A DNA stretch of 64,000 nt from Candidatus Parcubacteria bacterium (GCA_963814275.1 CAWFCE010000001.1:3307-67306), one strand, 5' to 3'; positions 5,129 through 26,955 are shown, counted from the first letter of the stretch. The notes: generated by a model not told the origin, from the sequence alone. Numbers and translations: made by a program.

Positions 5129-5851
5129 TGGACGTTCGATGAATGCAGTGGCGGCACGATCCATGACTTCGCCCCCGGCGCGGACGGCAAGGCGGCGAAC
5201 GCCAATCCCGGCACAGCTCCACCTCGGTACGACCGGCGTGACCGCCACCGGCACCTGCGCTTCGTCGTCGGACAGTTTCTGGTACAACGGGAAAGATGGG
5301 AAAGTTGGGCATGCGGGGAGTTTTGACGGGATGAGCGATTATATAGATTTAGGCTCAAATCGAGATTTAGAACCTTCAAGTATAACATTTTCATTTTGGA
5401 TAAAAAGAACTACTAGTTGGAATGATGTAAGGTATGGTTTTATTTGGACTAAGGGTAACTCCTGGAATAATAATGGTATTACTATTAGGGTTTATGACCT
5501 TGGCGGACAAAAGAATTTTTGTACTTAGGCTGATGGACTAAATTCATGCCGCGTACTTGCTGAACCGGATGAATATTATCCTTTAAATACTTGGGTACAC
5601 ATGACAATGGTATTTGATACATATAATGATGCAAGTTGGATTTACAAAAATGCCATATCCCAGCCAGTCAATTATTGGAATTCACCGCAAACTCTAAGCA
5701 AGACCAGTAACACCAAATATTTGGGATATAATCAGGCTACGGCGAATACATTAACGGTCTGATCGACGACGTGAAGATATGGAATTATGCTTTAACTCCC
5801 GAGCAAGTGCGTACTGAATATAACGGCGGGGCGGTTAAATTCGGGAATTGA
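5129..5851 (+). pseudogene. Decayed last LamG module and tail of paralog 1
   Basis: Homology to paralog C-terminal modules continues here (WTFDECSGGTIHD.., QLHLGTTGVTATGTCASSSDSFWYNGKDGK, ..GLIDDVKIWNYALTPEQVRTEYNGGAVKFGN*). It is interrupted by TAG 5126, a frameshift at ~5210, TAG 5526 and a frameshift at ~5745. Confidence 0.85.
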
Positions 5852-6025
5852 TGAAGAATTTATAATTTATAATTTATACCTAGTGGCACTTTGTAAGTTG
5901 TAAACAATTTGTAATATCAAATACTAAATTTATAAACGTTTATTAATTAAATATTACAAATTGGAAATTGTTTATAAATTACAAATTACGCCTTACAAAT
6001 TAAAACCATTTTTATATCAATAAAC
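5852..6025. repeat. AT-rich imperfect inverted-repeat spacer (TTTATAAAT/TACAAAT word family)
   Basis: The arms TTGTAAACAATTTGTAA.. and ..ATTGTTTATAAATTACAAATTAC are complementary. The spacer is homologous to 11944-12070, 19242-19368, 19465-19591 and 43279-43439. Confidence 0.8.
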
Positions 6026-6187
6026 ATGGCCAGCATAACTAAAAAACATTTCAAAACCATCTTAATCTCGATCACCGCCCTCACGCTTATTACCGCCGGG
6101 ATTTTGTACTTGTTTACAAGAAAGACGTCCCTGAAGCATCGGCCGGCTGGTGGAACGATTCCTGGTCCTATCGCAAAGCGATCGTGA
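6026..6187 (+). pseudogene. Uncoupled N-terminal signal-anchor exon of paralog 2
   Basis: The ATG at 6026 encodes MASITKKHFKTILISITALTLITAGILY.., like the paralog 3 N-terminus. It runs into a TGA at 6185-6187 because the segment is 1 nt shorter than the in-frame paralog (AAA at 6121-6123 versus AAAA at ~12952). Confidence 0.75.
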
Positions 6188-9100
6188 TCGATCATAGCTA
6201 CGTAACAGGCGATCTGGAGAATTTCCCGGTGCTTATTTCTTTGACTGATGCCAATTTAGGAACCCATGCCCAGACGGACGGGGATGATATTATATTTATT
6301 TCCTCGAACGGCCAGAAATTGTCACATGAAATCGAAAGTTTTGCCACTTCTACCGGGGTGCTGGTGGCTTGGGTGAAGATACCTAGTTTATCCAGTACCA
6401 ACGATACACAAATATTTATGTATTACGGCAATGCGGGCGTCGGCAATCAGGAGGATGCGGCGAACGTCTGGGACGGCGATTACCGGGCGGTCTGGCATTT
6501 GCCCGACTCATCCGCCTCAACCGATGATAGCACGATCAACGGGGTCAACTTGACCAACACCGGCGCCAGCCCAACTGATTCCGGCCGGGCGGCCGGGGCA
6601 ATGGAATTTGACGGCTCCAGCGGATTCCTGAAATTCAGCAATGACGGCCAGATCGGCACCGCCGGTACGATGAGCTTTTGGTACAAGGAAACGACAAACT
6701 GCATCGGCTATGAAGCGTTTTTCGGTATAGAGAATGACGATAACGGATTCGGCCTGGAAAGAAACGGTTCGGATACGCAATTATTCGGATATATCAATAG
6801 CAGTATCGCATTTTACAATACGGCCAATTTATTCGATGGTAATTGGAAATATATTGCCTTCACCTGGAATGATGTGGCAAACCTAAGATCGTTAATCGTG
6901 AATGGCAGTTCACAGGATTCCGACAACAGCTCCTTTTCGATGGGCAACATAAACGTAATTCATATCGGCGATTATTATAACGGCGGCAATCAGATCAAGG
7001 GCATTATGGATGAGATCCGCATCTCTTCGACCATCCGTTCCCAGCAGTGGCTCCAAACCGAATTCAATAACCAGAATTCGCCGGAATCATTCCTCGCTGT
7101 CCAATCCGAAGAGGTCGGGCCCTCACCCATCGGCTATTGGTCCATGGACGAAGGCTACGGCACGACGGTGCATGACGAAAGCGGACAGGGCAATAGCGGC
7201 ACGTTAAGCGGCGGAACTTGGCAGGACGAGAGTATGTGTATTTCCGGCAAATGCTTGTTCTTCGACGGAACAAATGATTACATCAATATCCCGGACGCGG
7301 ATTCTCTTAACGTTACGGAGACTACGATCAGCGCCTGGGTTAAGAGCGCGACCACGACTGCCGGAAAGTACATCATCGGCAAGGATCCGGCCTATGTATA
7401 TAATGGCGTAATCGGAACCGACGCTGACGACGGCGCGATAGACGGATCAGGTGGAATCGGTTACCAATGGGAGCCAAGTGGTGAATCCGGGAACCTCGGT
7501 TATATGGGCGAATATGTGGCGAATAACCGCTATTACGGCTATTTCCGCTTTGTTCTCGACCAGGATATACCTTCCGGCGCAACCATTGATTCGGCGACGA
7601 TCGATATCTATGGTCATGAGCGCTGGCTTTGGGAAGTAGCCAGTGACGCCCTAAGGATATGGGGCCATGACAGCGCAGACGCGCCGCTAGTAAACAATAA
7701 AAACGATTATCCCGGGGATGCGGGCGGGACCACCTTGACAGATGCTTCAACCAGATGGCCTTTGTCCGGCGGCCTGAACTGGAATGACGCGGGCTGGAAC
7801 ACCTCGCCGGACTTCAAAGCTATTATCCAGGAATTGGTGGACGATAACGGCGGTTTGACGGAAAACCACCATATCCAGCTCTGGATCGCCAAAGATGTCC
7901 TGCAGAATACCGGCGAGGAGGTCGGCTATGAGGACTATGCTTACACGGGTAGTCAAAATTTGGCAGAGTTGACGATAAATTTTTCTACTTCAGGCGGTGG
8001 CGCTGGCGCTACGGATGTGCCGTACGCCCTGAGCACGGCCGGCGGCGGGCAGTTCATGACCATGTCAAGCAGTACGATTTATTCCGCTACCTCGACCACG
8101 GATCTGAACGACAACAGATGGCATTACGTGTCCGGGACTTATGACGGCTCCAGAATGAAAATATATATCGATGGCAACCTGGAAACGATCAATTCGAACT
8201 ATACCGGCGACTTGCCTACCAAGGCCGGGGCGCTCCATATCGGGGCCGATTATCAGACCACGCCGGACAATTTCTTCCACGGTTTTATCGATGAAGTGAA
8301 AGTCTATCCCTACGCCCGCACGGCGGATCAAATAAAACAGGACTATGCCGCCGGATTGGCCGGGGTCAAATCGAATAACGGCGTGGCCGCCTCGTTCGGG
8401 TCCAAATCCGATTCCTGGATGACCGATGGGCTGGTCGGGTACTGGAAGTTCGACGAGCCCTCGACCGCCTCAACCTACGAGGATTCCTCCGGCAACGGCA
8501 ATATTGGTACGGCAAACGATAATGCCTCGACCACGGCCGGGAAGTTCGGCAATAGCGCGGTATTTGACGGCGCTAATGATGGCGTATATACAAGCAAAAG
8601 TGTAATTGAACTCAATACCGTAACTACATGTGCCTGGGTTAATCCCGAAACGCCCGGTCAATTCAGTAGCGGCACAATTATCGCTAACGGCAGCTATTAT
8701 CTTTATATGAACACAGACAGCTGGATTATTACCAGCGATGCCAGAACGACCGAAACGTATTTCAATTCGATCGCCCCAGTATTGAATAGTTGGCAGTTTG
8801 TATGCGTTGTAAGACAGGCCGACGGTATCGCATCATTGTATGTGAACGGCGTGCAGTCCGGCGCGAGCCAGTTTACTGGGACGCCAGAGGTAGCTATGTG
8901 GGATGACGCAATAGGTAATCGGGGAGATGATTTATTCTGTTTCGATGGTAAAATCGACGAAGTCCGCATCTACAACCGCGCCTTGTCCGCGGACGAGGTG
9001 AAAAAGCTCTACGAATGGGCGCCCGGGCCGGTGGCGTGGTGGAAGTTCGATGAAAAGAGCGGTACGACCGCCTACGACTCGGCCGCTTCGACGACGTACT

Positions 9101-11943
9101 CTGGCGGCAACCACGGAGCGTTCGGCGGGGGCAGTAATAATCCGTCCTGGAGCACTGGAAAATACGGCGGGGCATTGAAGTTTGCCGGGAATGAATATAT
9201 TGATGCAGTCCATAGCCCCAAACTGGAGTTCGGCACCGGAAGTTTTACAGTATCGTATTGGATGAAACCATTCGCCTATCCGACTGATCAGGATTCATCT
9301 ACCGCTGGTTTGATCAATAAACAAGATGCCAGCCAGGCTACCGGCTGGCGGTTTGATTTTTTTAGTAATGGTGATTTTATATTCGCTAATGATGACGGAA
9401 CGACAGAACCACAGGAGTATATGGATGATGACGTGGTTTTGAACCAATGGTATTACGTTACCGGTGTTGTAGACCGAACCACTGACCATAATAAGTTGTA
9501 TATCAACGGGCAATTGCAAAGTGATATAGACGATATTTCCGGGTTGGGCAGTTTCGATTCGGCCGCTAGTAACGACCTATATATCGGTGCCGGTCGGTCG
9601 GATCATCGTTACTTCGACGGCCTGATCGATGATGTCCGCATCTACAATTACGCCCGTACCCAGAAGCAGATCCTGGAGGATATGAACGCCGGTGGACCGG
9701 CATTGAAGCAGCCGGTATTGCATTTGTCGTTCGACGAGGGCTACGGGTCGGTGGCCCATGATGATTCGATCTATGGGAACAACGGTACGCTGGTATCCGG
9801 CGGTTCAGGCGGTAATTCAACCGTAAGCGCGATGTGGGACCTTAACGGAAAATTTGGGAAGGCCATGGAGTTTGACGGGACGAATGATTATGTCTACACT
9901 ACGAATTCATTCGACTACCCGGCGGATTTCACAGTGTCAGTTTGGTTCAAGACGACAGTGGCGTCCGGCCACAAGCTGGTGGGCTTTGAGAACTTGCAGA
10001 CCGGAACCGGCAGTGGCAGTCATAGCGGACATATTTGGATGGGGACAGATGGCAAAATACGCTATGGGTGGTGGACTGGTTCAGCGTCTGTAAATTTGGC
10101 GTCCACTGCCACGCTGAACGACGGCCAGTGGCATCATGCAGTAGGCACTTATAGTATGGCTCCTCTGGGCAGCCTGTATATAGATGGGGTCTTACAGGAG
10201 TCGAGTAGCTTAGCAATGGGATCGTATTCATCTGTATATTGGAGGGTTGGCAGCTGGCGTCTGGCCACCAGTTATTGGACGAACGGCAGCGATGGTTATT
10301 TTAACGGTCTGATAGATGAGGTCAAGGTCTATAATTATACCCTGTCCGAGGACGAGATCAAGACGCTATATAACAGCGGCGCGAGCGCTGTCATGGGCGA
10401 TGATGCCAGCCGGGACAATGACGGCGCAGTCGTGACGGGCGCGTCCAAAGAATATTGCATACCTGGCGACACGGCGCAGTGTGACCCGCCGGTGCTCGAT
10501 CTCGATTTTGACGAAAAGACCGGTCAATACACCTATGATAAGAGCGGACATGGCAACAACGGCACCCTCGGTTCCGGCGCCACCGCCGATGCGGCCGACC
10601 CGGTTTGGAAATCGGCCCGCTTCTGCCATACTGGCGCCTGCTTATTGTTTGACGATAATGATGATTATGTCAGTATCAGTGACAATTCGAGTTTAACATT
10701 CGGTAACGGAACGGATGATCAGCCGTTTTCCGGATCAGCTTGGGCTTATATGTATGATGCCACAACTTTTAGCGTGCTTTATAAAGGGCAAAACGATATC
10801 GGCAACCTAGAATGGTGGTTTGGAACGGACGATGGTTCTGACAATCTAATGTGCAAACTTTATGATAATATAGGGAATCAGGGAATTTATCAACTAAGCG
10901 ATACTGCCTTAACCGATTATGAGAATACCTGGATAAATCTGGCATTTACCTATGACGGAACCGAATCGGAGGACGGCATCAAGCTTTATCTCAACGGTGT
11001 CCTGCTGGATTCTACCGGAACTGAACAGGGCACTTATGTAGCCATGCATGATGTCTCCAACGCGCCTTTGTCTATCGGCGCTTTTGCTCCGGAAGATCCG
11101 GTATATCGTGGTTTTTCTGATGGCCTGATTGACGGCGTGAAGATTTACAATTACGCCCGCACACCGGCGCAGATCGCCTGGGATTATAATAAGGGCGCGC
11201 CGATCGCGGAGTGGGATTTCGACGAATGCTCGGGCTCTACGATCCATGACGCCAGCGGCAACGGTAATAACGGCCAGCTTTATCTCGGTACCACCGGCGT
11301 CACCGCCACCGGTACTTGCGCCTCTTCTTCGGATAGTTTTTGGTATAATGGGAAGGATGGCAAGCGGAATGCGGCGGGGAGTTTTGATAATACTGATGAT
11401 ATTGTCCGGATACAGGATTCCGGAGCCGATAGTATATTGGATTTCGGCAGCGGCGATTCTATTACGATTGGTGCCTGGGTTAACATTTATGATTTTACGG
11501 ATGATTATCAAGTATTGGCCGGCAAGACATCAAGCGGCAATTATTATTTTGAAGTCAGTCCGGAATGCAGCAACGGAGATGCGAACTGCCGGATGTATTT
11601 CATATATAGGAATGCGGCCAACACGGCATGGCGCGAAGCTACATCGGATAATTTATTATTGCATCGAAATGAATGGCAGTATGTGGCAGTCAGTTTTACT
11701 TTCGGCGATCCTGATACGATCAAATTTTATTATAACGGAATGATGGATGAAGGGCATTGGATCGGCGCTATCGGCAGCGACGCCCCAAGAGAAACGAATG
11801 AGGACCTCGTTATGGGCCGTAATATAAGCGGTGGTGAAAATTTTAATGGTCTGATTGACGAAGTGAAGATCTGGGATTATGCTTTGACTCCGGAGCAGGT
11901 CAAAACTGAATACAATGGCGGCGCAGTTAAATTCGGAAACTAG
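6184..11943 (+). CDS. DUF2341 + multi-LamG surface protein, paralog 2 (body intact, N-terminal anchor frameshifted away)
   Basis: The ORF is 1919 aa. The same frame is open from 6043 and encodes ..AGWWNDSWSYRKAIV upstream of the first start codon (GTG 6184). It has the full set of linker classes and the tail KFGN* (TAG 11941-11943). Confidence 0.85.
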   Translation: MIDHSYVTGDLENFPVLISLTDANLGTHAQTDGDDIIFISSNGQKLSHEIESFATSTGVLVAWVKIPSLSSTNDTQIFMYYGNAGVGNQEDAANVWDGDYRAVWHLPDSSASTDDSTINGVNLTNTGASPTDSGRAAGAMEFDGSSGFLKFSNDGQIGTAGTMSFWYKETTNCIGYEAFFGIENDDNGFGLERNGSDTQLFGYINSSIAFYNTANLFDGNWKYIAFTWNDVANLRSLIVNGSSQDSDNSSFSMGNINVIHIGDYYNGGNQIKGIMDEIRISSTIRSQQWLQTEFNNQNSPESFLAVQSEEVGPSPIGYWSMDEGYGTTVHDESGQGNSGTLSGGTWQDESMCISGKCLFFDGTNDYINIPDADSLNVTETTISAWVKSATTTAGKYIIGKDPAYVYNGVIGTDADDGAIDGSGGIGYQWEPSGESGNLGYMGEYVANNRYYGYFRFVLDQDIPSGATIDSATIDIYGHERWLWEVASDALRIWGHDSADAPLVNNKNDYPGDAGGTTLTDASTRWPLSGGLNWNDAGWNTSPDFKAIIQELVDDNGGLTENHHIQLWIAKDVLQNTGEEVGYEDYAYTGSQNLAELTINFSTSGGGAGATDVPYALSTAGGGQFMTMSSSTIYSATSTTDLNDNRWHYVSGTYDGSRMKIYIDGNLETINSNYTGDLPTKAGALHIGADYQTTPDNFFHGFIDEVKVYPYARTADQIKQDYAAGLAGVKSNNGVAASFGSKSDSWMTDGLVGYWKFDEPSTASTYEDSSGNGNIGTANDNASTTAGKFGNSAVFDGANDGVYTSKSVIELNTVTTCAWVNPETPGQFSSGTIIANGSYYLYMNTDSWIITSDARTTETYFNSIAPVLNSWQFVCVVRQADGIASLYVNGVQSGASQFTGTPEVAMWDDAIGNRGDDLFCFDGKIDEVRIYNRALSADEVKKLYEWAPGPVAWWKFDEKSGTTAYDSAASTTYSGGNHGAFGGGSNNPSWSTGKYGGALKFAGNEYIDAVHSPKLEFGTGSFTVSYWMKPFAYPTDQDSSTAGLINKQDASQATGWRFDFFSNGDFIFANDDGTTEPQEYMDDDVVLNQWYYVTGVVDRTTDHNKLYINGQLQSDIDDISGLGSFDSAASNDLYIGAGRSDHRYFDGLIDDVRIYNYARTQKQILEDMNAGGPALKQPVLHLSFDEGYGSVAHDDSIYGNNGTLVSGGSGGNSTVSAMWDLNGKFGKAMEFDGTNDYVYTTNSFDYPADFTVSVWFKTTVASGHKLVGFENLQTGTGSGSHSGHIWMGTDGKIRYGWWTGSASVNLASTATLNDGQWHHAVGTYSMAPLGSLYIDGVLQESSSLAMGSYSSVYWRVGSWRLATSYWTNGSDGYFNGLIDEVKVYNYTLSEDEIKTLYNSGASAVMGDDASRDNDGAVVTGASKEYCIPGDTAQCDPPVLDLDFDEKTGQYTYDKSGHGNNGTLGSGATADAADPVWKSARFCHTGACLLFDDNDDYVSISDNSSLTFGNGTDDQPFSGSAWAYMYDATTFSVLYKGQNDIGNLEWWFGTDDGSDNLMCKLYDNIGNQGIYQLSDTALTDYENTWINLAFTYDGTESEDGIKLYLNGVLLDSTGTEQGTYVAMHDVSNAPLSIGAFAPEDPVYRGFSDGLIDGVKIYNYARTPAQIAWDYNKGAPIAEWDFDECSGSTIHDASGNGNNGQLYLGTTGVTATGTCASSSDSFWYNGKDGKRNAAGSFDNTDDIVRIQDSGADSILDFGSGDSITIGAWVNIYDFTDDYQVLAGKTSSGNYYFEVSPECSNGDANCRMYFIYRNAANTAWREATSDNLLLHRNEWQYVAVSFTFGDPDTIKFYYNGMMDEGHWIGAIGSDAPRETNEDLVMGRNISGGENFNGLIDEVKIWDYALTPEQVKTEYNGGAVKFGN

Positions 11944-12166
11944 AAAAGAATTTATAATTTGTAATTTATAATTTGTAAACAATTTGTAATATTAAATTTG
12001 TAAAAGGTTTATAAATTATAAATTGGATATTGTTTATAAATTACAAATTACGCCTTACAAATTTTTTCCTGGCCTGATCGACGACGTGAAGATCTGGAAT
12101 TACGCTCTGACCGCCGAGCAGGTTAAACAGGAATACAATGGGGGAGCGGTTAGGTTCGGAGAATAG
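11848..12166 (+). repeat. 223-bp unit x1.4: gene tail (96 nt), hairpin spacer (127 nt), then an orphan tail copy at 12071-12166
   Basis: Positions 12071-12166 encode GLIDDVKIWNYALTAEQVKQEYNGGAVRFGE* with no upstream ORF. The spacing 11848 to 12071 is 223 bp, the same as in the 19146-19687 array. Confidence 0.85.
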
Positions 12167-12259
12167 TTGAAAAAGGATACAAGGATACAAGATACAAGGA
12201 TACAAACAATATTCAAATTTCAAATCACAAATATCAAACATTTAACAATATAATTAATC

Positions 12260-12652
12260 ATGGAAAACAAGGAGGAAAATAAAATATATGATTTGGAAGA
12301 AAGGACAACCATTTTTGCCCAGCGAGTAATCAGATTATGCCGAGCCTTACCAAAAGATTCGGTTAATAACCGGTTATCGGGACAAGCAGTCGGCTCATCA
12401 GGTTCGGTCGGTGCCAATTACCGGGAAGCCAATGATGCTCTGGGTAAAAAAGATTTTCTCCATCGTTTGCGGATAGCCAGGAAAGAAGCCAAGGAAACGA
12501 TCCATTGGCTAAAACTAATCGAAACCGCCAATCCGGAATTCAGTCCGAGAATGCAGGATTTGCATAAAGAAGCCAACGAAATAAAAAATATACTATCAGC
12601 GATAATCAATAAAACGGAGAAGAAAAATGAAAAAAAAATGAATTATGAATAA
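12260..12652 (+). CDS. Four-helix-bundle protein (23S rRNA intervening-sequence protein family, PF05635/TIGR02436; Avd-like fold)
   Basis: The ORF is 130 aa. The family pattern is YDLEERTxxFAxRVIRLCRALPK..NRLSGQAVGSSGSVGANYREAN..GKKDFLHRLRIARKEAKETIHWLKLI. Confidence 0.85.
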   Translation: MENKEENKIYDLEERTTIFAQRVIRLCRALPKDSVNNRLSGQAVGSSGSVGANYREANDALGKKDFLHRLRIARKEAKETIHWLKLIETANPEFSPRMQDLHKEANEIKNILSAIINKTEKKNEKKMNYE

Positions 12653-12714
12653 GGATGCAAAAAATATGTGTAAAGAAACAAGGATACAAGATACAAGAAA
12701 TATGAAAAAGAAAC

Positions 12715-12819
12715 AAGGATACAAGATACAAACAAATTACAAATTTCAAATCACAAATATCCAAACGGTTTGGAAAATTGGGATTTGAAATTTGTAATTT
12801 GTTTGTATCTTGTATCCTT
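12715..12819. repeat. Perfect 38-bp-stem hairpin (GGATACAAG word family) just upstream of paralog 3
   Basis: Positions 12715-12752 are the exact reverse complement of 12782-12819. The loop contains the mini-palindrome CCAAACGGTTTGG. A third related arm at 12173-12235 lies upstream of the four-helix-bundle gene. Confidence 0.9.
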
Positions 12820-12859
12820 GTAACTTGTATCCTTAAAACCGTTATACAAAACGATAAAC

Positions 12860-15280
12860 ATGAATATACTCAAATCAAAACATTTCAAAACCATCCTGAT
12901 CTCGATCACCGCCCTCGCGCTGATAACCGCCGGGATTTTGTATTGGACAAGAAAAGACGCGACTCCCGCGGAGGCAGGTTGGTGGAACGATTCCTGGTCC
13001 TACCGCAAAGCGATCGTGATCAATCACGGCTACGTCACAGGGGATCTGGAGAATTTCCCGGTGCTTATTTCCCTGACTGATGCCAGTTTAGGAACCCACG
13101 CGCAGGCGGACGGGGATGATATTATTTTTATTTCTCAAAATGGCCAGAAATTATCGCACGAGATCGAAGCGTTTGATAACACAACGGGCAAACTGGCAGC
13201 CTGGGTGAAGGTGCCAAGCTTAAGCAGCGCGGATGATACGCAGATATTTATGTATTACGGCAATGCGGGCGTCGGGAATCAGGAGGATGCGGCGAATGTC
13301 TGGAACGAGAGCTATAACGGCGTCTATCATCTTGCCGGCGGGAGCGGGGCCGACTCGACCGGCTATCACCGCGACGGGACCGCCTCGATCGGCGCTTCCT
13401 CGACCGCCTATATCGGCGGCAGCGGCGTCTTTGCCACATTCGATCCGGGTGATCTCGACACCACCTGGGGCGGCGGCGGATACGCGGATTACGATAGCGG
13501 CGGCAACGATGCCGCATATGACGCCGTACAGGCGGCCGACGGGTCGGTATTCGTCGCCGGCTACTATGTGGGGAGCGGCGGGATCGACTGGATGATCCGG
13601 AAATACGCGCCGGGCGGCGCGATCGATACCGCCTGGGGGGACAACGGGATGATCATATATTCGAGCAGCGGCAGCCATAATGATTACGCCCAGGCAATCG
13701 CCCTCGATAGCGGCGGTTCGATCTATGTCGGCGGCTATTACTACAATATCGCCAATTCCGACCCGGACTGGATGGTCCGCAAATACGACGCCGACGGCAA
13801 GCTCTGCAACGGCTCGGGCACGAGCTGCACCTGGGGGCCGGGCGATGCCGGCTATGTTACCTACGAAAACGATACAACAACGCCATTACCCGACGAGATT
13901 ACCCGGCTTTACGCGGATGCGGACGGAAAATTATACGTCGGCGGTTTCTATTACCACCAAAGCTACAGCGACAACGACTGGCTCATCATAAAATACACGG
14001 CCACCGGCACCCCGGACTGGACCTGGGGCGGGGGCGACGGGATGATCGATTACCAGAACAATTACGGCGATAACAAAGTGCAGGGTATGGCCGTATCGAC
14101 CTCGACCGGGGAGCTTTATGCGGCCGGACCGGACAATGACGAATGGGGCGATCCGTTCTGGACAATGCGTAAATATACGGCGGCCGGCGTGCCGGACACG
14201 ACCTGGGGTACAAACGGGATCGTTACATATTATGCCGCGGCCTATAGCCAAGCCGTGGCAACGGCGCTTGCTTTATCCGCAACGGGCGAGATCTATGTGA
14301 CCGGCACTTACGATACGAGTAATGGCTGGATGATGCGCAAGTACGATGCCGACGGCAAGCTCTGCAACGGCTCGGGCACGAGCTGCTCCTGGGCGGGCGG
14401 CAACGGTTATGTAACATTTGCCGACAACTCGTCCAATTCTATGGACTTGGCGCTTAATTCGTCAGACGAGCTGTATGCCGCCGGCTCGGTCCGCAACGCC
14501 AGCGACGACTGGATGATCCGGAAATACGACTCAAGCGGCGTACTCGACGCCTCCTGGGGCAGCGGCGGCATCGTCGAGGAAGACCTGACTGCCGGCACCG
14601 ACAAGATCCAGAGTATTTATCTGGCGGCGGACGGAACGGTATTTGCCGCCGGCGTTTATAATACCTCGGACTGGATGGTGCGCAAATATTCTCCCGGCGG
14701 CGGCGGTTCGGTCGCGATCGGCCCGGCCGGCAGTATCAAAAGCGCGTCTTTCTGGATCAAGGCCGGTTCGACCAGCGAGCAGATCATCGATATAAACGGT
14801 AATGCCTATATCCAGGTAGCCGGCGGCACGCTCTCCGCTCCGGGCTGGTCTTCGCCGACGATCTATGTCGACGGCACGGCCGGCACGGCGCTCGACACCG
14901 GCTGGCATCTGGTCACTGTTACCTCGGCCACGGCCCTGGACGCCACCTCGACGGATCTGGGCGTCACTCCCGGCGGCTATTACAACGGCCTCTTGGACGA
15001 AACCAGGTTCAGTTCGACCGAATTGAGCGCCGCCTGGATCGCGACCGAATACAATACTGAGAACGCGCCGGAAACATCCCTCTCGGTCCAAGCCGAGGAG
15101 ACCGGGCCGGGGCCGGTGGGGTATTGGTCGTTCGACGACCCCTCGGCAGGCTCGGAGCAGGAGGGCGGCGTTCACGATGAGAGCGGCCAGGGTAATCATG
15201 GAACGAATTACGGGGCAGTGCAAGCAGGACGAGAGCATGTGCGTCTCCAGGAAGTGCCTCAGACTCGACGGTACGAATGA
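12860..15280 (+). CDS. Paralog 3 fragment A: anchor, DUF2341, 7-blade beta-propeller-like repeats, LamG
   Basis: The ORF is 806 aa. Seven repeats of ..DxxWGxxG..(Y/V)..DG..Y(V/A)(A/G)G....DWM(I/V)RKY..xG.. span ~13451-14700. Confidence 0.7.
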   Translation: MNILKSKHFKTILISITALALITAGILYWTRKDATPAEAGWWNDSWSYRKAIVINHGYVTGDLENFPVLISLTDASLGTHAQADGDDIIFISQNGQKLSHEIEAFDNTTGKLAAWVKVPSLSSADDTQIFMYYGNAGVGNQEDAANVWNESYNGVYHLAGGSGADSTGYHRDGTASIGASSTAYIGGSGVFATFDPGDLDTTWGGGGYADYDSGGNDAAYDAVQAADGSVFVAGYYVGSGGIDWMIRKYAPGGAIDTAWGDNGMIIYSSSGSHNDYAQAIALDSGGSIYVGGYYYNIANSDPDWMVRKYDADGKLCNGSGTSCTWGPGDAGYVTYENDTTTPLPDEITRLYADADGKLYVGGFYYHQSYSDNDWLIIKYTATGTPDWTWGGGDGMIDYQNNYGDNKVQGMAVSTSTGELYAAGPDNDEWGDPFWTMRKYTAAGVPDTTWGTNGIVTYYAAAYSQAVATALALSATGEIYVTGTYDTSNGWMMRKYDADGKLCNGSGTSCSWAGGNGYVTFADNSSNSMDLALNSSDELYAAGSVRNASDDWMIRKYDSSGVLDASWGSGGIVEEDLTAGTDKIQSIYLAADGTVFAAGVYNTSDWMVRKYSPGGGGSVAIGPAGSIKSASFWIKAGSTSEQIIDINGNAYIQVAGGTLSAPGWSSPTIYVDGTAGTALDTGWHLVTVTSATALDATSTDLGVTPGGYYNGLLDETRFSSTELSAAWIATEYNTENAPETSLSVQAEETGPGPVGYWSFDDPSAGSEQEGGVHDESGQGNHGTNYGAVQAGREHVRLQEVPQTRRYE

Positions 15281-16583
15281 TTATGTGGATACGGGCAGCA
15301 CCGTCCTCAACCGGGACGAACTGACGATCTCGGCCTGGTTCCGGACGCTCGATTTCGAATACGGCACCCATATTATCTGGGAAGGCGATTCCGCGGGGAA
15401 TGGCTGGGGCGGTGAAGAGGAAATACATCTTTCGATCGGCAATAATTCGATCAATTTCTACTACGGGGACGGGGATAACAGGTATGGCATGGGAGATTAC
15501 CTGGAAATAAATTTCGAAATAGCATCTTCATCGGCGTGGCACCATGCAGCGGCCGTTTTGGATCCGGGTGGCACCGGTATATCTCTATATCTGGACGGGC
15601 ATCTGGTCGGAACCGATAGCTATAGTACTTCCATGTCGCGCGCGAGCTGGGACACGGACGCCCTGATCGGCCGTCCCGGCGCGAATGAGCGGTATTTCCA
15701 GGGCTTTATCGACGAGGTCAAAATCTATCCCTACGCCCGCACGGCGGACCAGATCCGGCAGGACTACGCCGCCGGGTTGGCCGGGGTCAAGTCCAATTCC
15801 GGCGTGGCCGCCAGCTTCGGCTCGCAGTCCGACTCCTGGATGAGCGACGGGCTGGTCGGGTACTGGAAATTCGACGAGCCCTCGACCGCTTCGACCTACG
15901 AGGACTCCTCGGGCAACGGCAACACCGGCACGACTTACGGTAATGCCTCGACTACGGCCGGCCGATTCGGCAGCGCGGGCGTTTTCGACGGCAGCGGCGA
16001 CTATGTGGACGTCGGAAGCTCAAGCGCCCTGCAGCTGACCGGCAGCGCCACCTGGGCCGCCTGGGTCAACGCGGCCGCTTTGGTCTCGGGCCAGAAATAT
16101 ACGATCGTGGGCAAGGACGGCAGTTCAGCCGACACCGGCTGGCAGATGCGGCGCGGCGATGCCGATGCTTTCAGGATGAGGATCGCCGTAGTGGCCGATT
16201 CGGATATTGGCCGCGACTCAGCCACTATTCCCGTGACCGGCGCCTGGTACCATGTGGTTGGCGTTTATGACGCTGCCGCGCAAACACTCGATATCTATGT
16301 CAATGGCGTGCTTGATAACGGCGCCCTGGATGGCCCCGTACCGGCGTCGCAAAGGAATTCGGGCCAAAACGTCAATATCGGGAAAAAATCCTCGGCTGAT
16401 AATTATTACTGGAACGGCCAAATCGACGAAGTGCGCATCTACAACCGCGCCCTGTCCGCGGACGAGGTCAGGAAATTATACGAATGGGCGCCGGGGCCGG
16501 TGGCGTGGTGGAAGTTCGATGAGCTAGCGGCGCAGACTGTCTACGACAGCGTGCGCAAGTTCGACTTACTCCGGGGGAAATAA
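15177..16583 (+). CDS. Paralog 3 fragment B: two LamG modules with linker classes b and c
   Basis: The ORF is 468 aa and contains YPYARTADQIRQDYAAGLAGVKSNSG and IYNRALSADEVRKLYEWAPGPVAWWKFDE. Confidence 0.65.
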   Translation: MRAARVIMERITGQCKQDESMCVSRKCLRLDGTNDYVDTGSTVLNRDELTISAWFRTLDFEYGTHIIWEGDSAGNGWGGEEEIHLSIGNNSINFYYGDGDNRYGMGDYLEINFEIASSSAWHHAAAVLDPGGTGISLYLDGHLVGTDSYSTSMSRASWDTDALIGRPGANERYFQGFIDEVKIYPYARTADQIRQDYAAGLAGVKSNSGVAASFGSQSDSWMSDGLVGYWKFDEPSTASTYEDSSGNGNTGTTYGNASTTAGRFGSAGVFDGSGDYVDVGSSSALQLTGSATWAAWVNAAALVSGQKYTIVGKDGSSADTGWQMRRGDADAFRMRIAVVADSDIGRDSATIPVTGAWYHVVGVYDAAAQTLDIYVNGVLDNGALDGPVPASQRNSGQNVNIGKKSSADNYYWNGQIDEVRIYNRALSADEVRKLYEWAPGPVAWWKFDELAAQTVYDSVRKFDLLRGK

Positions 16584-17019
16584 CGCCAGTATTGGCGGCG
16601 GCAGCGCCAATCTGCCCGTTTGGACACAGGGGAAATACGGCGGAGCGCTTAAATTCGATGGCGGATAATGATTACATCGGCTCCGGTAAAGATATTCTAA
16701 AGTTGTCGTCCGGCCAGGGGACGATAACGTTCTGGATGAAATATACTGCCTGGCCAGTACTGTAGACGATCTTATGCATTTTTATACAATGCTTATAATG
16801 ATCATCTGGATCTATATTTCAACGGTACCAGCCACAATGTTAACTTAAAGGCTGAAGATGCCGGCGCCACGGTTTTGGAATATGGATATGATCTGGATAA
16901 TCTGGAGGGCGGTTTTCAGGAGAAATGGTATTATGTGACGTTTCAGGATCGGCAACAGCCCGAAGCTGTATATCGACGGGATAGAAAGAACGCTGAGCGG
17001 AACTAACGGCGGTTACTGG

Positions 17020-18120
17020 ATGAACCATTTTAATGTCAATAATATAACTATCGGAAAAAGCGTTTGGGGAGCATTCGGCGGCCTGATCGACGACGTGCGT
17101 GTCTACAACTACGCCCGCACCCAGAAGCAGATTTTGGAGGATATGGGCGAGGGCCCGGCCCTGAACCAGCCGGTTCTCCATCTCACCTTCGACGAGGGCT
17201 ATGGCGATACGGCTTATGATTCTTCGGTTTTTCATAATAACGGCACCCTGTATCCGGTCGGGGGCGCCGGGTCGAACGATACGGTCAGTGATATGTGGGA
17301 CAAGAACGGCAAATTCGGGGGAGCGATGGAGTTCGACGGGGTGAATGATTATGTAGACATAAACGATAATGCCTCTCTTGATACATTAACTGCCAATTTT
17401 ACAATATCAGCTTGGGTTGCGCCGGATACTTTTGGGGCGTGGCGCTTTATTTATCAATCAGGAACGCAGACTAATTATTGGGCTGTGGGACTTGAAGATA
17501 CGGGCGACGGACATATCGATTTTTCTGAACATGGAATTGCAGATTATATCTCAACTTCGGCTATAAGCGATTCCAATTGGCATCATATTGTAGTTGTAAA
17601 AGATGGGAATAGTGGAGTTAATATCAGGTTTTACCTTGATGGAACAGCAGATGGTACAGCATCAGTAGGAACAGTCGCGACTCCATCGGGAGCAAAAAGA
17701 ATAGGTCGTGAATCTAATGGGGCCTCCCCGTTTAACGGCCTGATCGATGAGGTTTATGTTTACAACTACGCCCTGTCCGCGGACGAGATAAACACCCTCT
17801 ATAATCAAGGCCAGGCGGCGGTCATGGGCGATGACGCCAGCCGGGATAACGACGGCACGGCCGTCACCGGCAAGTCCAAGGAGTATTGCATTCCCGGCGA
17901 CACCGCGCAATGCGATCCGCCGGTCGGGGAATGGGATTTTGACGAAGGCACGGGGACGACCACCCATGACAAATCCGGGAATGGGAACGACGGGCAGTTT
18001 GTAACTGCCGCCACCAGTCCCGCCTGGAGCGCTACGGCAAACACAACTATGGTTTGCAGTTTGACGGGAATGATGATTACATTAGCACCGGTAATGATCC
18101 CGTACAAACCAATACTATAA
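17020..18120 (+). CDS. Paralog 3 fragment C: LamG modules with linker classes d and e
   Basis: The ORF is 366 aa and contains YNYARTQKQILEDM and YNYALSADEINTLYNQG..CIPGDTAQCDPPVGEWDFDE. Confidence 0.65.
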   Translation: MNHFNVNNITIGKSVWGAFGGLIDDVRVYNYARTQKQILEDMGEGPALNQPVLHLTFDEGYGDTAYDSSVFHNNGTLYPVGGAGSNDTVSDMWDKNGKFGGAMEFDGVNDYVDINDNASLDTLTANFTISAWVAPDTFGAWRFIYQSGTQTNYWAVGLEDTGDGHIDFSEHGIADYISTSAISDSNWHHIVVVKDGNSGVNIRFYLDGTADGTASVGTVATPSGAKRIGRESNGASPFNGLIDEVYVYNYALSADEINTLYNQGQAAVMGDDASRDNDGTAVTGKSKEYCIPGDTAQCDPPVGEWDFDEGTGTTTHDKSGNGNDGQFVTAATSPAWSATANTTMVCSLTGMMITLAPVMIPYKPIL

Positions 18121-19241
18121 CAGCCTGTTCCTGGATCAAACCTTATGCCGGCGATATAGTAAGAGTAATTGTTTCTAATGTTGATTTCCTATTTTATGTT
18201 TATGTAGGCAGTGATCCGACCGAAAAGCTAGTTGTTACAAGCGACAATGGCAGCCATGGCGTATCATCAGACACTCATTCCATAACTTTAAACGCATGGC
18301 AATATGTTTGCGCTAAACGGTTAAGCGATGGGAAAACCACTTTTTATATTAATGGTATCCAATCCGGTGCCGCCGACCAGGATAGTGGGACTCCTACTGA
18401 TATCTCTAGTACAGGTTTAAGTATCGGAGCGAGATATGATGGGGCTTATAGTTTTTCAGGCTTGGTCGATGACGTGAAGATCTATAACTACGCCCGTACG
18501 CCGGCGCAGATCGCCTGGGATTTTAACGGCGGCAAGCCGGTCGCGGAGTGGGATTTCGATGAATGTTCCGGCGGCACCATCCATGACAGCGCCGTCTCCT
18601 GGAACGGCGGCACGGCCAACAACGGCCAGCTTTATCTCGGCACCTCCGGCGTCACCGCCACCGGCACTTGTGCTTCTTCTTCGGATAGTTTTTGGTATAA
18701 TGGGAAGGACGGGAAAGTGAATCATGCGGGGAGTTTTGATGGGACGAATGATTATGTTGATATAAGTGATCTGGACTTTATGGACGGTGTAAGCCAATTG
18801 ACAATTTCCGCTTGGATGAAACGCAATACCCTTAATGCTAAGGTAAACTTAGGCAAGTATTTCAATTCAAATAACTATACCACAATAACCATGTATACCG
18901 ACGGAAATATTATTTTTGACATAGGCAATGGGGCGGGCCAAAACGGTTATGTGGCAAACAACAATACGGACTGGCAGCATGTCGTGTTAGTATTCGACGG
19001 CACCCAATCAGGTAATGCGAACCGTTTGAAAGGGTATATAAACGGCGTACAGCAAGAATTGAATTGGGACGGAACTATCCCATCCAGCACTTATAATAGT
19101 AGCGCTAATTTTATGATAGGGAGAGTATATACACACTATACCAACGGCCTGATCGACGACGTGAAGATCTGGAATTACGCTTTAACTCCCGAGCAGGTTA
19201 AACAGGAATATAACGGGGGAGCGGTTAAATTTGGAAACTAG
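18054..19241 (+). CDS. Paralog 3 fragment D: last two LamG modules and tail
   Basis: The ORF is 395 aa and contains YNYARTPAQIAWDFNGGKPVAEWDFDECSGG and the tail WNYALTPEQVKQEYNGGAVKFGN*. Confidence 0.65.
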   Translation: MQFDGNDDYISTGNDPVQTNTITACSWIKPYAGDIVRVIVSNVDFLFYVYVGSDPTEKLVVTSDNGSHGVSSDTHSITLNAWQYVCAKRLSDGKTTFYINGIQSGAADQDSGTPTDISSTGLSIGARYDGAYSFSGLVDDVKIYNYARTPAQIAWDFNGGKPVAEWDFDECSGGTIHDSAVSWNGGTANNGQLYLGTSGVTATGTCASSSDSFWYNGKDGKVNHAGSFDGTNDYVDISDLDFMDGVSQLTISAWMKRNTLNAKVNLGKYFNSNNYTTITMYTDGNIIFDIGNGAGQNGYVANNNTDWQHVVLVFDGTQSGNANRLKGYINGVQQELNWDGTIPSSTYNSSANFMIGRVYTHYTNGLIDDVKIWNYALTPEQVKQEYNGGAVKFGN

Positions 19242-19687
19242 AAAAGAATTTATAATTTGTAATTTATAATTTGTAAACAATTTGTAATATTAAATTTGTA
19301 AAAGGTTTATAAATTATAAATTGGATATTGTTTATAAATTACAAATTACGCCTTACAAATTTTTTCCCGGCCTGATTGACGATGTGAAGATCTGGAATTA
19401 TGCGTTAACTCCCGAGCAGGTTAAACAGGAATATAACGGGGGAGCGGTTAAATTTGGAAATTAGAAAAGAATTTATAATTTGTAATTTATAATTTGTAAA
19501 CAATTTGTAATATTAAATTTGTAAAAGGTTTATAAATTATAAATTGGATATTGTTTATAAATTACAAATTACGCCTTACAAATTTTATCCCGGCCTGATC
19601 GATAACGTGAAGATCTGGAATTATGCGTTAACTCCCGAGCAGGTTAAACAGGAATATAATGGAGGAGCGGTTAAATTCGGTAATTAG
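19146..19687 (+). repeat. Tandem array of the 223-bp unit (96-nt gene tail + 127-nt hairpin spacer), 2.4 copies; orphan tails at 19369-19464 and 19592-19687
   Basis: Unit starts are at 19146, 19369 and 19592. Each orphan keeps an open 32-codon frame ending in TAG. Differences between copies are mostly synonymous third-position changes. Confidence 0.9.
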
Positions 19688-19699
19688 ATTACTATAGGC

Positions 19700-19870
19700 A
19701 TCTCCCGCGCCCGCTACCCCTCCGCCCCGCAGCGTGCGGGGCACCTCCCCTTCGTAAGGGGAGGAATCGCTAGATTACAACGGCTTTTCTCCCCTTACGA
19801 AGGGGAGATGTCCCGCTTGCCCGCCGTAGCCTTGGCGTAGGAGGGAAGGGACAGAGGGGTAGCGGGTGTG
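19700..19870. repeat. GC-rich nested palindromic leader of the DUF559 gene
   Basis: The outer arms CCGCTACCCCTC / GAGGGGTAGCGG are complementary. Internal hairpins are CCCCGCA-GCG-TGCGGGG, CTCCCCTT-CGT-AAGGGGAG and CTCCCCTT-ACG-AAGGGGAG. The left half is the reverse complement of window positions 1-78. Confidence 0.8.
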
Positions 19871-19898
19871 GCCGGAGGGATCAAACACGAATAAAAAT

Positions 19899-20249
19899 AT
19901 GACGATTATATACAATCAAGCCAAATACCGTCTATATAGAAAAATGCTGAGGAAGAACGGCACGGTGGCGGAATGGATGTTATGGCAGAGGTTGAAAAAC
20001 AAACAGCTGGGGGCCAGATTCAGGCGGCAATACAGCATCGGTTATTATATCGCCGATTTTTGTTCGCCACGCAAAAAATTAGTGATTGAACTGGACGGCG
20101 GGGTACATGACGACGAAGGCGCTAGATACTACGATAAAGAACGGCAAGAAACCATCGAAGAGATGGGTTTCAAAATATTACGTTTCAGAAACGAAGAAGT
20201 GGAAAAAGATATCGAAAATGTCGTAAATAAAATTAAAACATTCATATAA
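19899..20249 (+). CDS. DUF559 (Vsr-like) endonuclease-domain protein
   Basis: The pattern E..LWQRLKNKQLG.RFRRQYSIGYYIADFCSPRKKLVIELDGGVHD......DKERQETIEEMGFKILRFRNEEV is the classic DUF559 pattern. I prefer ATG 19899 over the ORF-track GTG 19866, which lies inside the hairpin leader. Confidence 0.9.
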   Translation: MTIIYNQAKYRLYRKMLRKNGTVAEWMLWQRLKNKQLGARFRRQYSIGYYIADFCSPRKKLVIELDGGVHDDEGARYYDKERQETIEEMGFKILRFRNEEVEKDIENVVNKIKTFI

Positions 20250-21389
20250 CCATGAAACTAAAACCAATTTCCAATTTCAAATTTTTAATTTCCGCGTTGT
20301 TGCTCGTACTGGCTATGGCAACGGCATGGATTTGGTTTACCCGAAAAACGCCTGAAGTAATAGCCGGCTGGTGGAACGATTCCTGGTCCTACCGCAAAGC
20401 GATCGTGATCAATCACGACTACGTACAGGTGATCTGAGAATTTCCCGGTATTAATATCCCTGACTGATACCATTCCTCGGCGCCCACGCCCAGGCGGACG
20501 GGGACGATATTATTTTCATATCCGACAATGGCCAAAAACTATCCCACGAGATAGAATGTTTCACCACCCGACCGGGGGTGCTCGTCGCCTGGGTGAAAAT
20601 ACCGAGCCTGTCCAGCACGGATGATACGCCGATATATATGTATTATGGCAATGCGGGAGTGGGGAATCAGGAGGATGTGGAAAATGTCTGGAGATAATGC
20701 ATATCGCGGTGTGTGGCATGTGCCGAATGACGGTGCCGCCGCCATCGAAGAAACGCACGTCAAATTTACAATGACGGGAATGCGGAAGGAACGGCTTCCG
20801 CTAAAATCGTCCGCGCAGGTGGACGGTGCGTTCGACTTAGATTGGCGGCATCGAGTACGTGAAGTCGGCACCGATGAGAATTTCAATATAAGTGATTTCA
20901 TGGTATCAATGTGGATTAAAACCGCTGACACAGTCAGCAACATATGAGTTTTGCCGGAAGAGCGAACAACGGATATTATATAGATTCCGGTGAGCAGGGG
21001 ATTATCTGGTAATCAGAGATATAGTCCGGAGAAGACACGTTTCAGTCCAATGAAGTGGGAGCATCAATAATCTTCTAATGCAGTAGACGGGAAGGTAGAC
21101 AATACGTGGCACTATGCGGTTGGTGTAAAAAATCAACGGATTATACATTATACGTGGATGGTATGCGATGGAAGATTCTAATACCGTTCAATTGGGTCAT
21201 AAGCAATGCTGCGCAAAATTTCAGTATTGGTAATGATCGTAACATCAGAGATTTTAATGGAACTCTTGACGAAATCCGAGTCTCCAGCGACATGTCCGCT
21301 CCGACGACTGGATCGCGACCGAATACGCGAACCAAAACTCGCCCCCAACCTTCCTTTCCGTCCAGGCCGAGGAAACCGGGCCGGGGCCG

Positions 21390-24300: not shown

Positions 24301-24635
24301 GTACGACTGACCAGATAGACGGCGATTGGCATTTTTATTCCATGATAGCCGACAAGGAGGCGGACGAAGTTAAACTATATGTTGACGGAGTGGAAATAAG
24401 CAAGTCCACCGTTAATTCTGGGGTCTGGCCCGATGTCGATACTTCGGCACATGTCACCAATATCGGCGATTTATCAGGCAGTTATAATTTTAAGGGTCTA
24501 ATCGACGACGTGCGTGTCTACAACTACGCCCGCACCCAGAAACAGATCCTGGAGGACATGGGTAACGGCCCGGCCATTAAAGCAGCCGGTCCTGCACCTG
24601 ACTTTCGACGAGGGCTACGGCGGGACGGCTTATGA
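21390..24635 (+). CDS. Paralog 4 longest intact fragment (LamG modules, nested insert domain, extra jelly-roll domain)
   Basis: The ORF is 1081 aa and contains linker classes a, b, c and d. Confidence 0.65.
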   Translation: MGYWSFDDPSAGSGQGAAVHDESAQGNNGTVQGNPVQQDDSMCISGKCLYFDGINDYINIPDADSLNVTQTTIAAWVKSATTTAGKYIMAKSPPSTIGPLHSAAVNDDWMLYYESGAWNYGTGGIAWWGRYGGKGEYSGWRFALDRAIPAGTDIDMAGTKLEIYKPSGEADIDDFYIYVADSADPGQITGIAARPVMEGGSTATYPNTKEGAGAVNHTGWSDGWNTILVGPLIQYLVDTYGGLADGAHILILGAGAASEPDNSESIWAGFENGSYIPKLTIVYTDNSGSGPDVPYALSTVGGGQFMARDSGTTYSATSTTDLNDNGWHYVAGTYDGSDMKIYVDGNLETTNTDFSGALPVMAGVLRIGGDYQATPANFFNGFIDEVKIYPYARTADQIRQDYAAGLAGIKSNSGVAASFGSKNDSWLTDGLVGYWKFDEPSTAGTYEDSSGNDNTGTAAGNASTTAGKYGNGGVFDGDGDYIDVDNPTTAMDVSNVTISVWVKPNDVTFEGGIVVSPIDFNNKWGLIWNDDSGGQPIVVSDLGPDITGRQANIAPTRNQWHHIVAIPSSHKLYVDGSEVETRDITESWMSYNGKLGIGRHYDSINFNGQIDEVRIYNRALSPDEVKELYEWAPGPVAWWKFDELNGATAYDSAASTDYSGGNNGYISGGATTFPTNGVLDDFNRSNTGPPPSASWSNYLNGLSVYNNTVVRGSGSENISYWNEDMGLDQEAYFTFNGAAGVSMGVVLKFDPSAGTGYIIFYYSGNGNVYIGKLTDSSTATIYSRCVNGSATCTRLDYFSAGSFAAGDSLGAHIDAAGHIAVYKESGGTWTEVGNVTDGTYAVGKIGLQITSNSTVAGALADDFGGGNAAGAPPEPALGKFGGAIEFDGNDNAVTVPPSAKLSPGNGSWTAAAWAKPEDENQHAVLIMNYVDSDNSQWSLSFSNSSWSGAGKRLWGMYTESEPSAIYRASYSTTDQIDGDWHFYSMIADKEADEVKLYVDGVEISKSTVNSGVWPDVDTSAHVTNIGDLSGSYNFKGLIDDVRVYNYARTQKQILEDMGNGPAIKAAGPAPDFRRGLRRDGL

Positions 24636-26867: not shown

Positions 26868-26955
26868 TGAAGAATTTATAATTTATAATTTATAATTTTC
26901 AAACAATTTATAATATCAAATACTAAATTTATAAATATGACACAGGGAGGGAAAA

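Follow-up and report, generated by a model that had tools for sequence, protein, structure and literature searches.

223-bp units of gene tail and hairpin behind tandem LamG paralogs of a Candidatus Parcubacteria bacterium: probable untranslated scars of recombination

We analyzed a 64,000-nucleotide stretch of DNA from Candidatus Parcubacteria bacterium (GCA_963814275.1, contig CAWFCE010000001.1, positions 3307–67306; hereafter the window), the first 41 kb of which hold six tandem paralogs of 5.6–7.9 kb each. Every paralog is made up of an N-terminal signal/transmembrane segment, a DUF2341 domain and about seven Laminin_G_3 (LamG) domains; the best non-self homologues are ~40% identical, and those that are named come from Patescibacteria (Falkowbacteria, Parcubacteria and others). 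The present subject is the 3΄ end of these genes, a 96-nt tail composed of the 31-codon C-terminal end and the stop codon (GLIDDVKIWNYALTPEQVKQEYNGGAVKFGN followed by stop). It encodes the last strand of the final LamG domain and a conserved EYNGGAV(K/R)FG(N/E/Q)-stop end, with C-terminal residues varying among tails (P/A, K/R, N/E, D/N). Tail copies were found at positions 5756, 11848, 12071, 19146, 19369, 19592 and 26772, with a more diverged copy at 40938, and the tail pattern matched in none of the shuffles of the window. The copies at 5756, 11848 (paralog 2), 19146 (paralog 3), 26772 and 40938 are genuine, gene-borne tails. The other three are orphans, one behind paralog 2 (12071, named O2a) and two behind paralog 3 (19369, O3a, and 19592, O3b), and directly 5΄ of each lies a 127-nt AT-rich hairpin, giving a period of 223. 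We denote by S the dispersed palindrome family, by S-B the 127-nt spacer of the arrays and by S-A the variant in the spacer between paralogs 1 and 2. The two arrays consist of the following parts.

11848–11943, plus strand: genuine tail of LamG paralog 2 (open reading frame (ORF) 6184–11943), KT-type (VKTEYNGG), with the last 9 nt as in the paralog-3 tail.
11944–12070, plus strand: S-B copy 1, the 127-nt AT-rich hairpin, in which positions 121–127 (TTTTCCT) form the junction to the orphan.
12071–12166, plus strand: orphan O2a, KQ-type, with the first 36 nt as in the paralog-3 tail and a private 3΄ end that runs into a four-helix-bundle cassette.
19146–19241, plus strand: genuine tail of LamG paralog 3 (last ORF piece 18054–19241).
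19242–19368, plus strand: S-B copy 2, with a core (positions 1–120) identical to those of copies 1 and 3 and the junction TTTTTTCCC.
19369–19464, plus strand: orphan O3a, with no private states, equal to the paralog-4 tail at positions 6–68 and to the paralog-3 tail at positions 37–92.
19465–19591, plus strand: S-B copy 3, with the junction variant TTTTATCCC.
19592–19687, plus strand: orphan O3b, with four private changes, three synonymous and one D>N (the latter not in the second assembly, L005, described below).

Tandem Repeats Finder returned a repeat of period 223 at positions 19145–19688 (2.4 copies, 95% matches, score 1004), and the copies lie head-to-tail with a constant period and one common junction, as in a tandem duplication. 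A first-pass annotation of the sequence had described this arrangement, with one extra unit behind paralog 2 and two behind paralog 3, and its remark that the orphans have no upstream ORF also holds, since each is preceded by three in-frame stop codons within the spacer and by no ATG. All orphans start at the motif GGCCTGATYGA (G-L-I-D), and the homology may reach a few bases 5΄ of GGCC (in-frame K-F-F-P-G-L-I-D). This motif had also been said to end every LamG module; its exact form occurs at 11 sites in the window (the three orphans, the paralog-3 tail and seven internal module ends) and not at every one of the ~38 module ends. Translation of the orphans by bypass or as micro-ORFs was considered and rejected: the hairpin contains an in-frame TTG, and tail codon 6 is GTG, but there is no ribosome-binding site, and the product would merely duplicate part of a β-strand.

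Compared with the paralog-3 tail, the orphan peptides carry zero (O3a), one (O3b) or three (O2a) changes in 31 residues, all of them conservative. These numbers bear on the earlier suggestion that the orphans are functional 3΄ donor cassettes, that is, silent tails kept for recombination into the expressed gene. At rhs and cdiA loci, the orphan C-terminal modules that lie displaced downstream recombine with the main gene; they encode different toxins, each with an immunity gene of its own, and an exchange alters the phenotype (Koskiniemi et al. 2014, PMC3967940). The LamG orphans resemble those modules in being 3΄ fragments that have no start and closely follow a full-length gene on the same strand, in beginning at a conserved motif with an open frame, and in arising from, and being able to undergo, homologous recombination with the main gene. 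Unlike them, however, they do not have a divergent C-terminal domain and so have no diversity to donate; a swap would change nothing, with no apparent gain from the exchange. Nor is there an immunity-like or partner gene specific to each orphan; the orphans are followed by a hairpin or by 23S_rRNA_IVP or DUF559 cassettes that are also found elsewhere. The frame is indeed open, as the first-pass annotation had stressed, but this is expected by chance (P(no stop) ~0.5) and hence uninformative. A donor function is thus very improbable in our judgment, and the orphans would be recombination landing pads, the other role proposed for them, only in the passive sense in which any 96-bp repeat is a substrate for homologous recombination.

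We folded the spacer and obtained a single long hairpin, both as RNA (–35.9 kcal/mol, z = –5.95) and as DNA (z = –4.0), with arms of ~63 nt that are 76% complementary, in agreement with the inverted repeat originally noted. Its context elsewhere in the window is given by three further features.

5756–6026, plus strand: normal layout, with the paralog-1 tail (5756–5851), S-A (5852–6003), a 23-nt leader and then the paralog-2 ATG (6027).
26772–26936, plus strand: paralog-4 tail (26772–26867) followed by the left arm only of S-A (26868–26936), cut by an IS200-like/RAYT-like gene (26956–27606).
43283–43436, plus strand: S-family hairpin away from LamG tails, directly 5΄ of the start codon of ORF 43440–48419 (β-helix protein).

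A search with a profile built from four copies detected S-family members at 5853–6001, at the three S-B positions, at 43284–43435 and, as a left arm only, at 26869–26936. The relatives compared throughout were L001, L002, L003, L004 (GCA_025490955.1), L006, L007 and L008; L004 contains three to four S copies in the same profile search, located between LamG, peptidase-M16 and UvrD-type genes. Members are ~120–155 nt long, their arms are conserved in sequence within and between genomes, and their usual position is between a stop codon and the start of the next gene, typically ending a few bases before the start codon. The palindromes at 43283–43439 of the window and at 11775–11914 and 14111–14236 of L004 abut start codons with no visible Shine-Dalgarno sequence, and this position suggests that the right arm may act as a 5΄ leader or the hairpin as an RNA-processing site. 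Only 1 of 37 pairs in S is compensatory, the arms being conserved by sequence rather than by RNA-structure covariation. The Rfam scan of the window gave no match at the gathering score (only sub-threshold matches of miRNA-precursor-type hairpins), and consensus promoter and terminator scans gave nothing above shuffles, with no terminator in the arrays; compared with a Rho-independent terminator, S-B is non-canonical, with an AT-rich 60-bp stem followed by T6.

By its distribution, then, S is an ordinary dispersed intergenic palindrome of this lineage, and it is probably a functional or selfish intergenic element in itself. As a multi-copy family of intergenic palindromes with sequence-conserved arms, it is comparable to REP/BIME and ERIC sequences and to miniature inverted-repeat transposable elements (MITEs). 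Unlike REP/BIME sequences and MITEs, it is placed precisely between a stop codon and the next start and does not lie beside a transposase of its own. The family is dispersed, and no terminal inverted repeat with a short target-site duplication was found at 5852–6003 or 43283–43436, the sites compared within the 64 kb. Assignment to the RAYT/REP class was rejected, S being a single 127-nt hairpin without a GTAG head rather than a set of short palindromes of 20–40 nt. Integron attC sites were likewise rejected: no recombinase domain was found in the ORFs scanned, and the ends of S (AAAAGAATTT at the left and ACAAATTTTTTCC at the right) are without the core sites RYYYAAC ... GTTRRRY.

All three orphans are entered from S through ACAAATT, followed by TTTT(T/A)TCC(T/C) and then by GGCCTGAT, and the ancestral continuation of S, seen in the spacer between paralogs 1 and 2 and in L004, is ACAAATT followed by AAAACC and, further on, ATG. 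The three orphans thus appear to go back to one earlier non-homologous join, in which microhomology of a few bases probably took part. Since S is followed here by a gene tail instead of a gene start, a gene body is missing between them, and each orphan could be read as the remnant of a once complete LamG paralog, lost in three independent deletions. Synonymous-only differences would fit divergence while the genes were functional, and decayed remnants do exist (at the end of paralog 5 and in L003 and L001). Three independent deletions of 6–7 kb, however, would not be expected to produce the same non-homologous junction three times, nor to leave S copies 100% identical beside paralog bodies that are 40–60% identical. 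Such a history is therefore improbable.

We compared the divergence of the spacer with that of its surroundings. The S cores (positions 1–120) show no difference across the three copies (3 × 120 nt) and the last 7 nt, at the spacer-to-tail junction, show one or two; the flanking tails differ at 5–17 of 96 sites (Fisher's exact test against S, P = 4e-7 to 0.016), and between paralogs 2 and 3 the identity of the final LamG module is only about 40–60% as far as the start of the tail. Blocks of 125–135 nt without a mismatch begin at tail position 88 or 94 and extend through S. Because S is identical while tails and gene bodies have diverged, the S-tail units of paralogs 2 and 3 do not seem to stem from duplication of the locus and appear to have been copied between the loci recently.

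The tails, in turn, differ mainly by synonymous changes. Among the paralog-3 tail, O3a and O3b there are ~11 substitutions, of which one is non-synonymous (D>N in O3b), giving pN/pS values of 0–0.04 and an excess of synonymous changes that is not expected under neutral mutation (P = 1e-6 to 2e-5). The first-pass annotation was right about this excess. Because the adjacent non-coding S shows zero substitutions, the differences are unlikely to have been acquired after orphaning, and their inheritance from functional tails is a better explanation than mutation after orphaning or selection on the orphans. More generally, an open frame and synonymous-only change are no proof that a gene fragment is functional when it has been copied from functional paralogs.

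Consistent with such inheritance, the array tails are patchworks of states present in other tails. O3a equals the paralog-4 tail over 63 nt (6–68), a likeness noticed at the outset, and differs there from its neighbour at four sites; it combines 5΄ states like those of O3b and paralog 4 with 3΄ states like those of paralog 3. O2a is of the KQ-type, like paralogs 3 and 4, and the adjoining paralog-2 tail is of the KT-type (to position 87). Private changes of O2a cluster at its 3΄ end, beside the resident downstream cassette, and of the three amino-acid states private to it, two (A and R) match those of functional tails in L003 and L004. In the four-gamete test, 60 of 105 informative site pairs were incompatible, which fits recombination.

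The same pattern of substitutions decides against a diversity-generating retroelement, in which the orphan tails would be template repeats beside an Avd-like four-helix-bundle gene and would diversify the gene tail. An untranslated copy of a gene's 3΄ end is a hallmark of template repeats, a 23S_rRNA_IVP gene (12260–12652, with a match to 23S_rRNA_IVP and not to bAvd) follows O2a, and in L001 (901–1554, minus strand), where the only bAvd-like match was seen, an ORF fuses a bAvd-like/four-helix-bundle N-terminus (PF22296, 2e-11) to a LamG remnant of ~95–105 residues with a tail. However, the differences between tails are mainly third-position C/T changes, synonymous and not at adenines, the opposite of the mutagenesis caused by these elements, and no reverse transcriptase was found in any window ORF scanned with Pfam (some small ORFs were unscanned). 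We consider this reading extremely unlikely.

Taken together, the common spacer-to-tail junction, the identical spacer cores beside gene bodies of ~40–60% identity and the patchwork tails agree with the earlier proposal that the units are products of unequal exchange. We think it probable, with some reserve, that recombination at the 3΄ ends of tandem DUF2341/LamG surface-protein paralogs, in a genome of the Patescibacteria type, left the 223-bp units behind as untranslated scars. The orphan arrays are most likely non-functional, and no function need be assumed for them. In a first step, a single illegitimate join at the level of microhomology would have connected the 3΄ edge of S to the first tail codons with loss of the intervening DNA, producing the order tail-S-tail. 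In a second step, suggested by the sequence pattern, the 96-bp direct repeats around the hairpin would have permitted out-of-register homologous events, whether by unequal sister exchange, by slipped repair or repair of the synthesis-dependent strand annealing type, or by loop-out and re-integration. These events would have added the second unit behind paralog 3 and placed a copy of the S-tail unit after paralog 2, a gene with a body of unrelated DNA sequence. If the crossover fell within the tail, the left tail should combine the resident 5΄ part with the donor 3΄ part, and the right tail the donor 5΄ part with the resident 3΄ part; paralog 2 and O2a fit this prediction, and O3a fits it loosely. 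Candidates for the initiating lesion would be breakage at the hairpin, a nearby nuclease gene and imported DNA.

Direct repeats that flank a palindrome undergo tandem duplication, expansion and contraction through misalignment, by slippage or by unequal sister exchange. Related experimental work is reported (PMC3519483). The arrays conform to this picture in having two or three 96-bp repeats (90–95% identical) placed 223 bp apart around a hairpin with 63-nt arms, with one junction. They depart from plain misalignment in that the unit was also copied to a second locus with an unrelated upstream gene, and in that the repeats, coming as they do from a family of functional gene ends, show synonymous differences only. 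The orphan array is best filed as a tandem or ectopic gene-end duplication by repeat-mediated recombination, a known kind of event that calls for no new molecular system. Members of the Patescibacteria have been shown to recombine homologously and to be naturally competent (PMC10633639). The arrays appear to be young, because S is undiverged while the tails are patchworks of functional-tail states; a young, perfectly conserved hairpin is thus embedded between older, selection-filtered tails. If so, the remodelling of large arrays of adhesin-like surface proteins by repeated gene ends and intergenic palindromes, in ultrasmall, host-dependent bacteria, can be followed here in a clean and datable case.

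A second assembly covers one of the two arrays. The contig L005 (ENA ERZ25039495, contig_104206, 5195 bp), which was reached via a called 31-residue ORF (P0121), extends over the end of paralog 3, the spacer, the DUF559 gene and the start of paralog 4, and is 93.5% identical to the window with 68 gap openings in 4.2 kb. Its layout, tail-S-tail-S-tail with three tails and two spacers, is that of the window, and it keeps both junction variants (TTTTTTCCC and TTTTATCCC) as well as the states specific to O3a and O3b. This contig bears on the possibility that the array is an artefact, namely a repeat mis-expanded in metagenome assembly. The exact repeats of 125–135 nt and the homopolymer frameshifts in the paralogs, which suggest a long-read assembly with residual errors, would favor such an artefact. 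However, the copy-specific diagnostic and junction variants are reproduced in the separate assembly, and the error profile of L005 suggests long reads that span the array. The tandem copies are thus hardly attributable to assembly, and the layout first described for paralog 3 stands.

Frameshifts at short homopolymers occur in paralogs 1–4 (at 6095–6150, 15195–15235, 18005–18060, 20420–20460, 24565–24600 and 25120–25150); for example, AAA in paralog 2 corresponds to AAAA in paralog 3 at the signal-peptide boundary. They may be long-read errors rather than signs of pseudogenes, because related assemblies carry Flye-style contig names and L005 is very noisy.

Several observations weigh against the reading of the units as recombination scars. 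There is no difference in copy number between the two assemblies, so that instability of the array is a prediction only. The breakpoint is ambiguous within ~11 nt, and the founding event is not reconstructible. The perfect identity of S would also be expected if the element were strongly constrained, if it had transposed or if polishing of a long-read assembly had homogenised the copies. Formal support for gene conversion among the 96-nt tails is weak: a permutation test similar to the pairwise homoplasy index was not significant (p = 0.32), and the incompatible site pairs may also reflect homoplasy at saturated synonymous sites. Close relatives were not found: neither exact S nor degenerate tail patterns had a match in genome contigs, and the tail pattern in metagenome contigs matched one short contig only, L001. 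Finally, the distribution of tails and S-B is known here for 64 kb of a 457,738-bp contig. In other searches, S and tail patterns had no match in viral contigs; exact-protein look-ups with window proteins (the DUF559 protein with two alternative starts, the four-helix-bundle protein and P0001) returned no record; and the matches listed for the four-helix-bundle protein included no further assembly of the paralog-2 locus.

In the relatives, the tail peptide is kept at the C-terminus of homologues whose bodies are ~35–40% identical, and partial tails accompany it at several loci. In L008, a 22-codon orphan that resembles the tail of another paralog lies 42 nt after a full tail, and three 8-codon remnants (AVRFSD/AARFTD) lie behind palindromic elements, some of them with six-fold codons (CGT/AGA, AGT/TCG) unlike those of the adjacent full tail. 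In L007, a GC-rich palindromic element of 111 nt has a 24-nt near-copy of the tail end at its flank; in L003, a truncated four-helix-bundle gene is followed by a decayed orphan; and in L001 a tail is retained on the LamG remnant of the fusion ORF. The recurrence of a full tail, a palindromic element and a partial tail in several relatives suggests a general turnover process at these loci.

Homology-facilitated illegitimate recombination is an established route in competent bacteria and was reportedly described by de Vries and Wackernagel in 2002. It provides one form of a different account, in which S and other palindromic or selfish cassettes invade, anchored by homology to the conserved tail on one side only; the other form is Campbell-type integration of a fragment containing a tail and an element. 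Each invasion would restore an intact tail and push the old tail, whole or partial, downstream, so that the orphans would be a layered record. In its favor, a different cassette begins right after the tail stop codon in every case; in the relatives, partial tails of between 8 and 22 codons come after palindromic elements; the differing six-fold codons of the L008 remnants imply an origin in other, long-diverged functional tails; the L007 element is flanked by its tail-end near-duplicate; S is identical while the tails differ; and Patescibacteria can be competent (PMC10633639). The arrays further share with homology-facilitated illegitimate recombination one homologous anchor (the tail), one non-homologous junction (the edge of S to the tail start) and a duplicated anchor, but the donor might just as well be a paralog in the same genome as imported DNA. 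Against it, no donor molecule or recombinase has been identified, and identical S-B occurs only in the tandem context within the window, with a handful of loci sampled. The account also overlaps with that of recombination scars, differing mainly in the initiator of the event, and the two are not separable here. We consider it possible but doubtful.

A broader and equally tentative proposal is that a guild of intergenic selfish elements spreads among paralogs and between Patescibacteria genomes by means of the conserved LamG tail, which would provide a portable anchor of homology; the guild would comprise S, the GC-rich MITE-like palindromes and the four-helix-bundle, DUF559, RAYT-like, PD-(D/E)XK and GIY-YIG mini-genes. 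We regard this as unlikely. If it were true, an intact tail would be rebuilt at every invasion and its predecessor pushed aside, strings of orphans could be read as a stratigraphy of invasions, and the conservation of the tail DNA would be maintained in part by this traffic.

Each gap between paralogs holds a different small cassette directly after the tail stop codon, including the bare hairpin S-A at 5852–6003 and the IS200-like/RAYT-like genes at 26956–27606 and from 35169. The cassettes behind the two arrays, and a tail remnant further downstream, are as follows.

12167–12859, plus strand: four-helix-bundle (23S_rRNA_IVP) cassette, with the gene at 12260–12652 and inverted repeats at 12172–12237 and 12778–12843, followed by the paralog-3 leader (ATG at 12860).
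19688–20249, plus strand: GC-rich palindromic element (19688–19865) and DUF559 endonuclease-like gene (19890–20249), directly after O3b.
34981–35025, plus strand: decayed 14-codon tail remnant (VRTEYNGGAVKFGN followed by stop) at the end of paralog 5.

A deleted version of the repeat unit had been placed at 34964–35025; a remnant is present there, and its actual extent is that of the 14 codons just listed. Paralog 5 also contains an internal tail-like motif, GLIDDVRFFNYPLTPEQIKTEYTGGAMRIG (34200–34289), which reads into an extra segment of 225 residues without a Pfam match; the end of this gene (34200–35025) has an arrangement of tail, insert and old tail in which the insert is coding. Beyond it, at 35485–35695, an 87-bp unit repeated 2.4 times (100% identical) interrupts the RAYT-like ORF starting at 35169. 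Each unit contains a GTAG-headed, REP-like perfect hairpin, GTAGAGACGTTGCAATGCAACGTCTCTAC, and a similar hairpin, GTAGAGACGAGGCATGCCTCGTCTCTAC, lies in L002 between a LamG tail and a RAYT-like gene.

The start of the window is composite. Positions 1–89 are the reverse complement of 19703–19792 (97.8%), an inverted segment of ~90 bp from the GC-rich element upstream of DUF559; positions 27–213 match 19786–19977, a 5΄ fragment of DUF559 (85%); and positions 207–430 match the RAYT 3΄ end and the paralog-5 leader at 27574–27797 (98.7%). Because this region (1–430) is chimeric, the intergenic cassettes appear to recombine with each other.

The window contains two 23S_rRNA_IVP mini-genes (12260–12652 and 42090–42458), and the copy at 12260 is enclosed by 66-nt inverted repeats, like the stem of an intervening sequence. 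Its family has 5019 relatives, and the best matches among those listed are ~70–80% identical. Four-helix-bundle genes also stand between or beside LamG paralogs in L002 (9601–9981), L003 (15307–15693) and L008 (5669–6010, 12141–12506 and 14692–15042), and the fusion ORF of L001 is followed by repeated 41-nt units and two PD-(D/E)XK (PDDEXK_3) mini-genes. GC-rich MITE-like palindromes (TGTCATTGCGAG to CTCGCAATGACA and relatives) directly follow LamG tails in L008 (5374–5668 and 11495–12140) and L007 (6968–7130), and after each of them come eight codons that repeat the tail end (GAVRFSD / GAVRFGE).

After the LamG array, L002, L004, L006, L007 and L008 share a synteny of two small unannotated genes, a peptidase M16 gene and a UvrD/PDDEXK (AddA-like) helicase gene, which in L002 and L006 reaches PheS. 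The window ends differently, with giant β-helix proteins of 1659 and 3343 aa. Repeats of 300 nt (77–94% identical) at 51876–52402, 59174–59700 and 62786–63312, within or after the gene for the 3343-aa protein and downstream, indicate a second family of recombining surface-protein paralogs.

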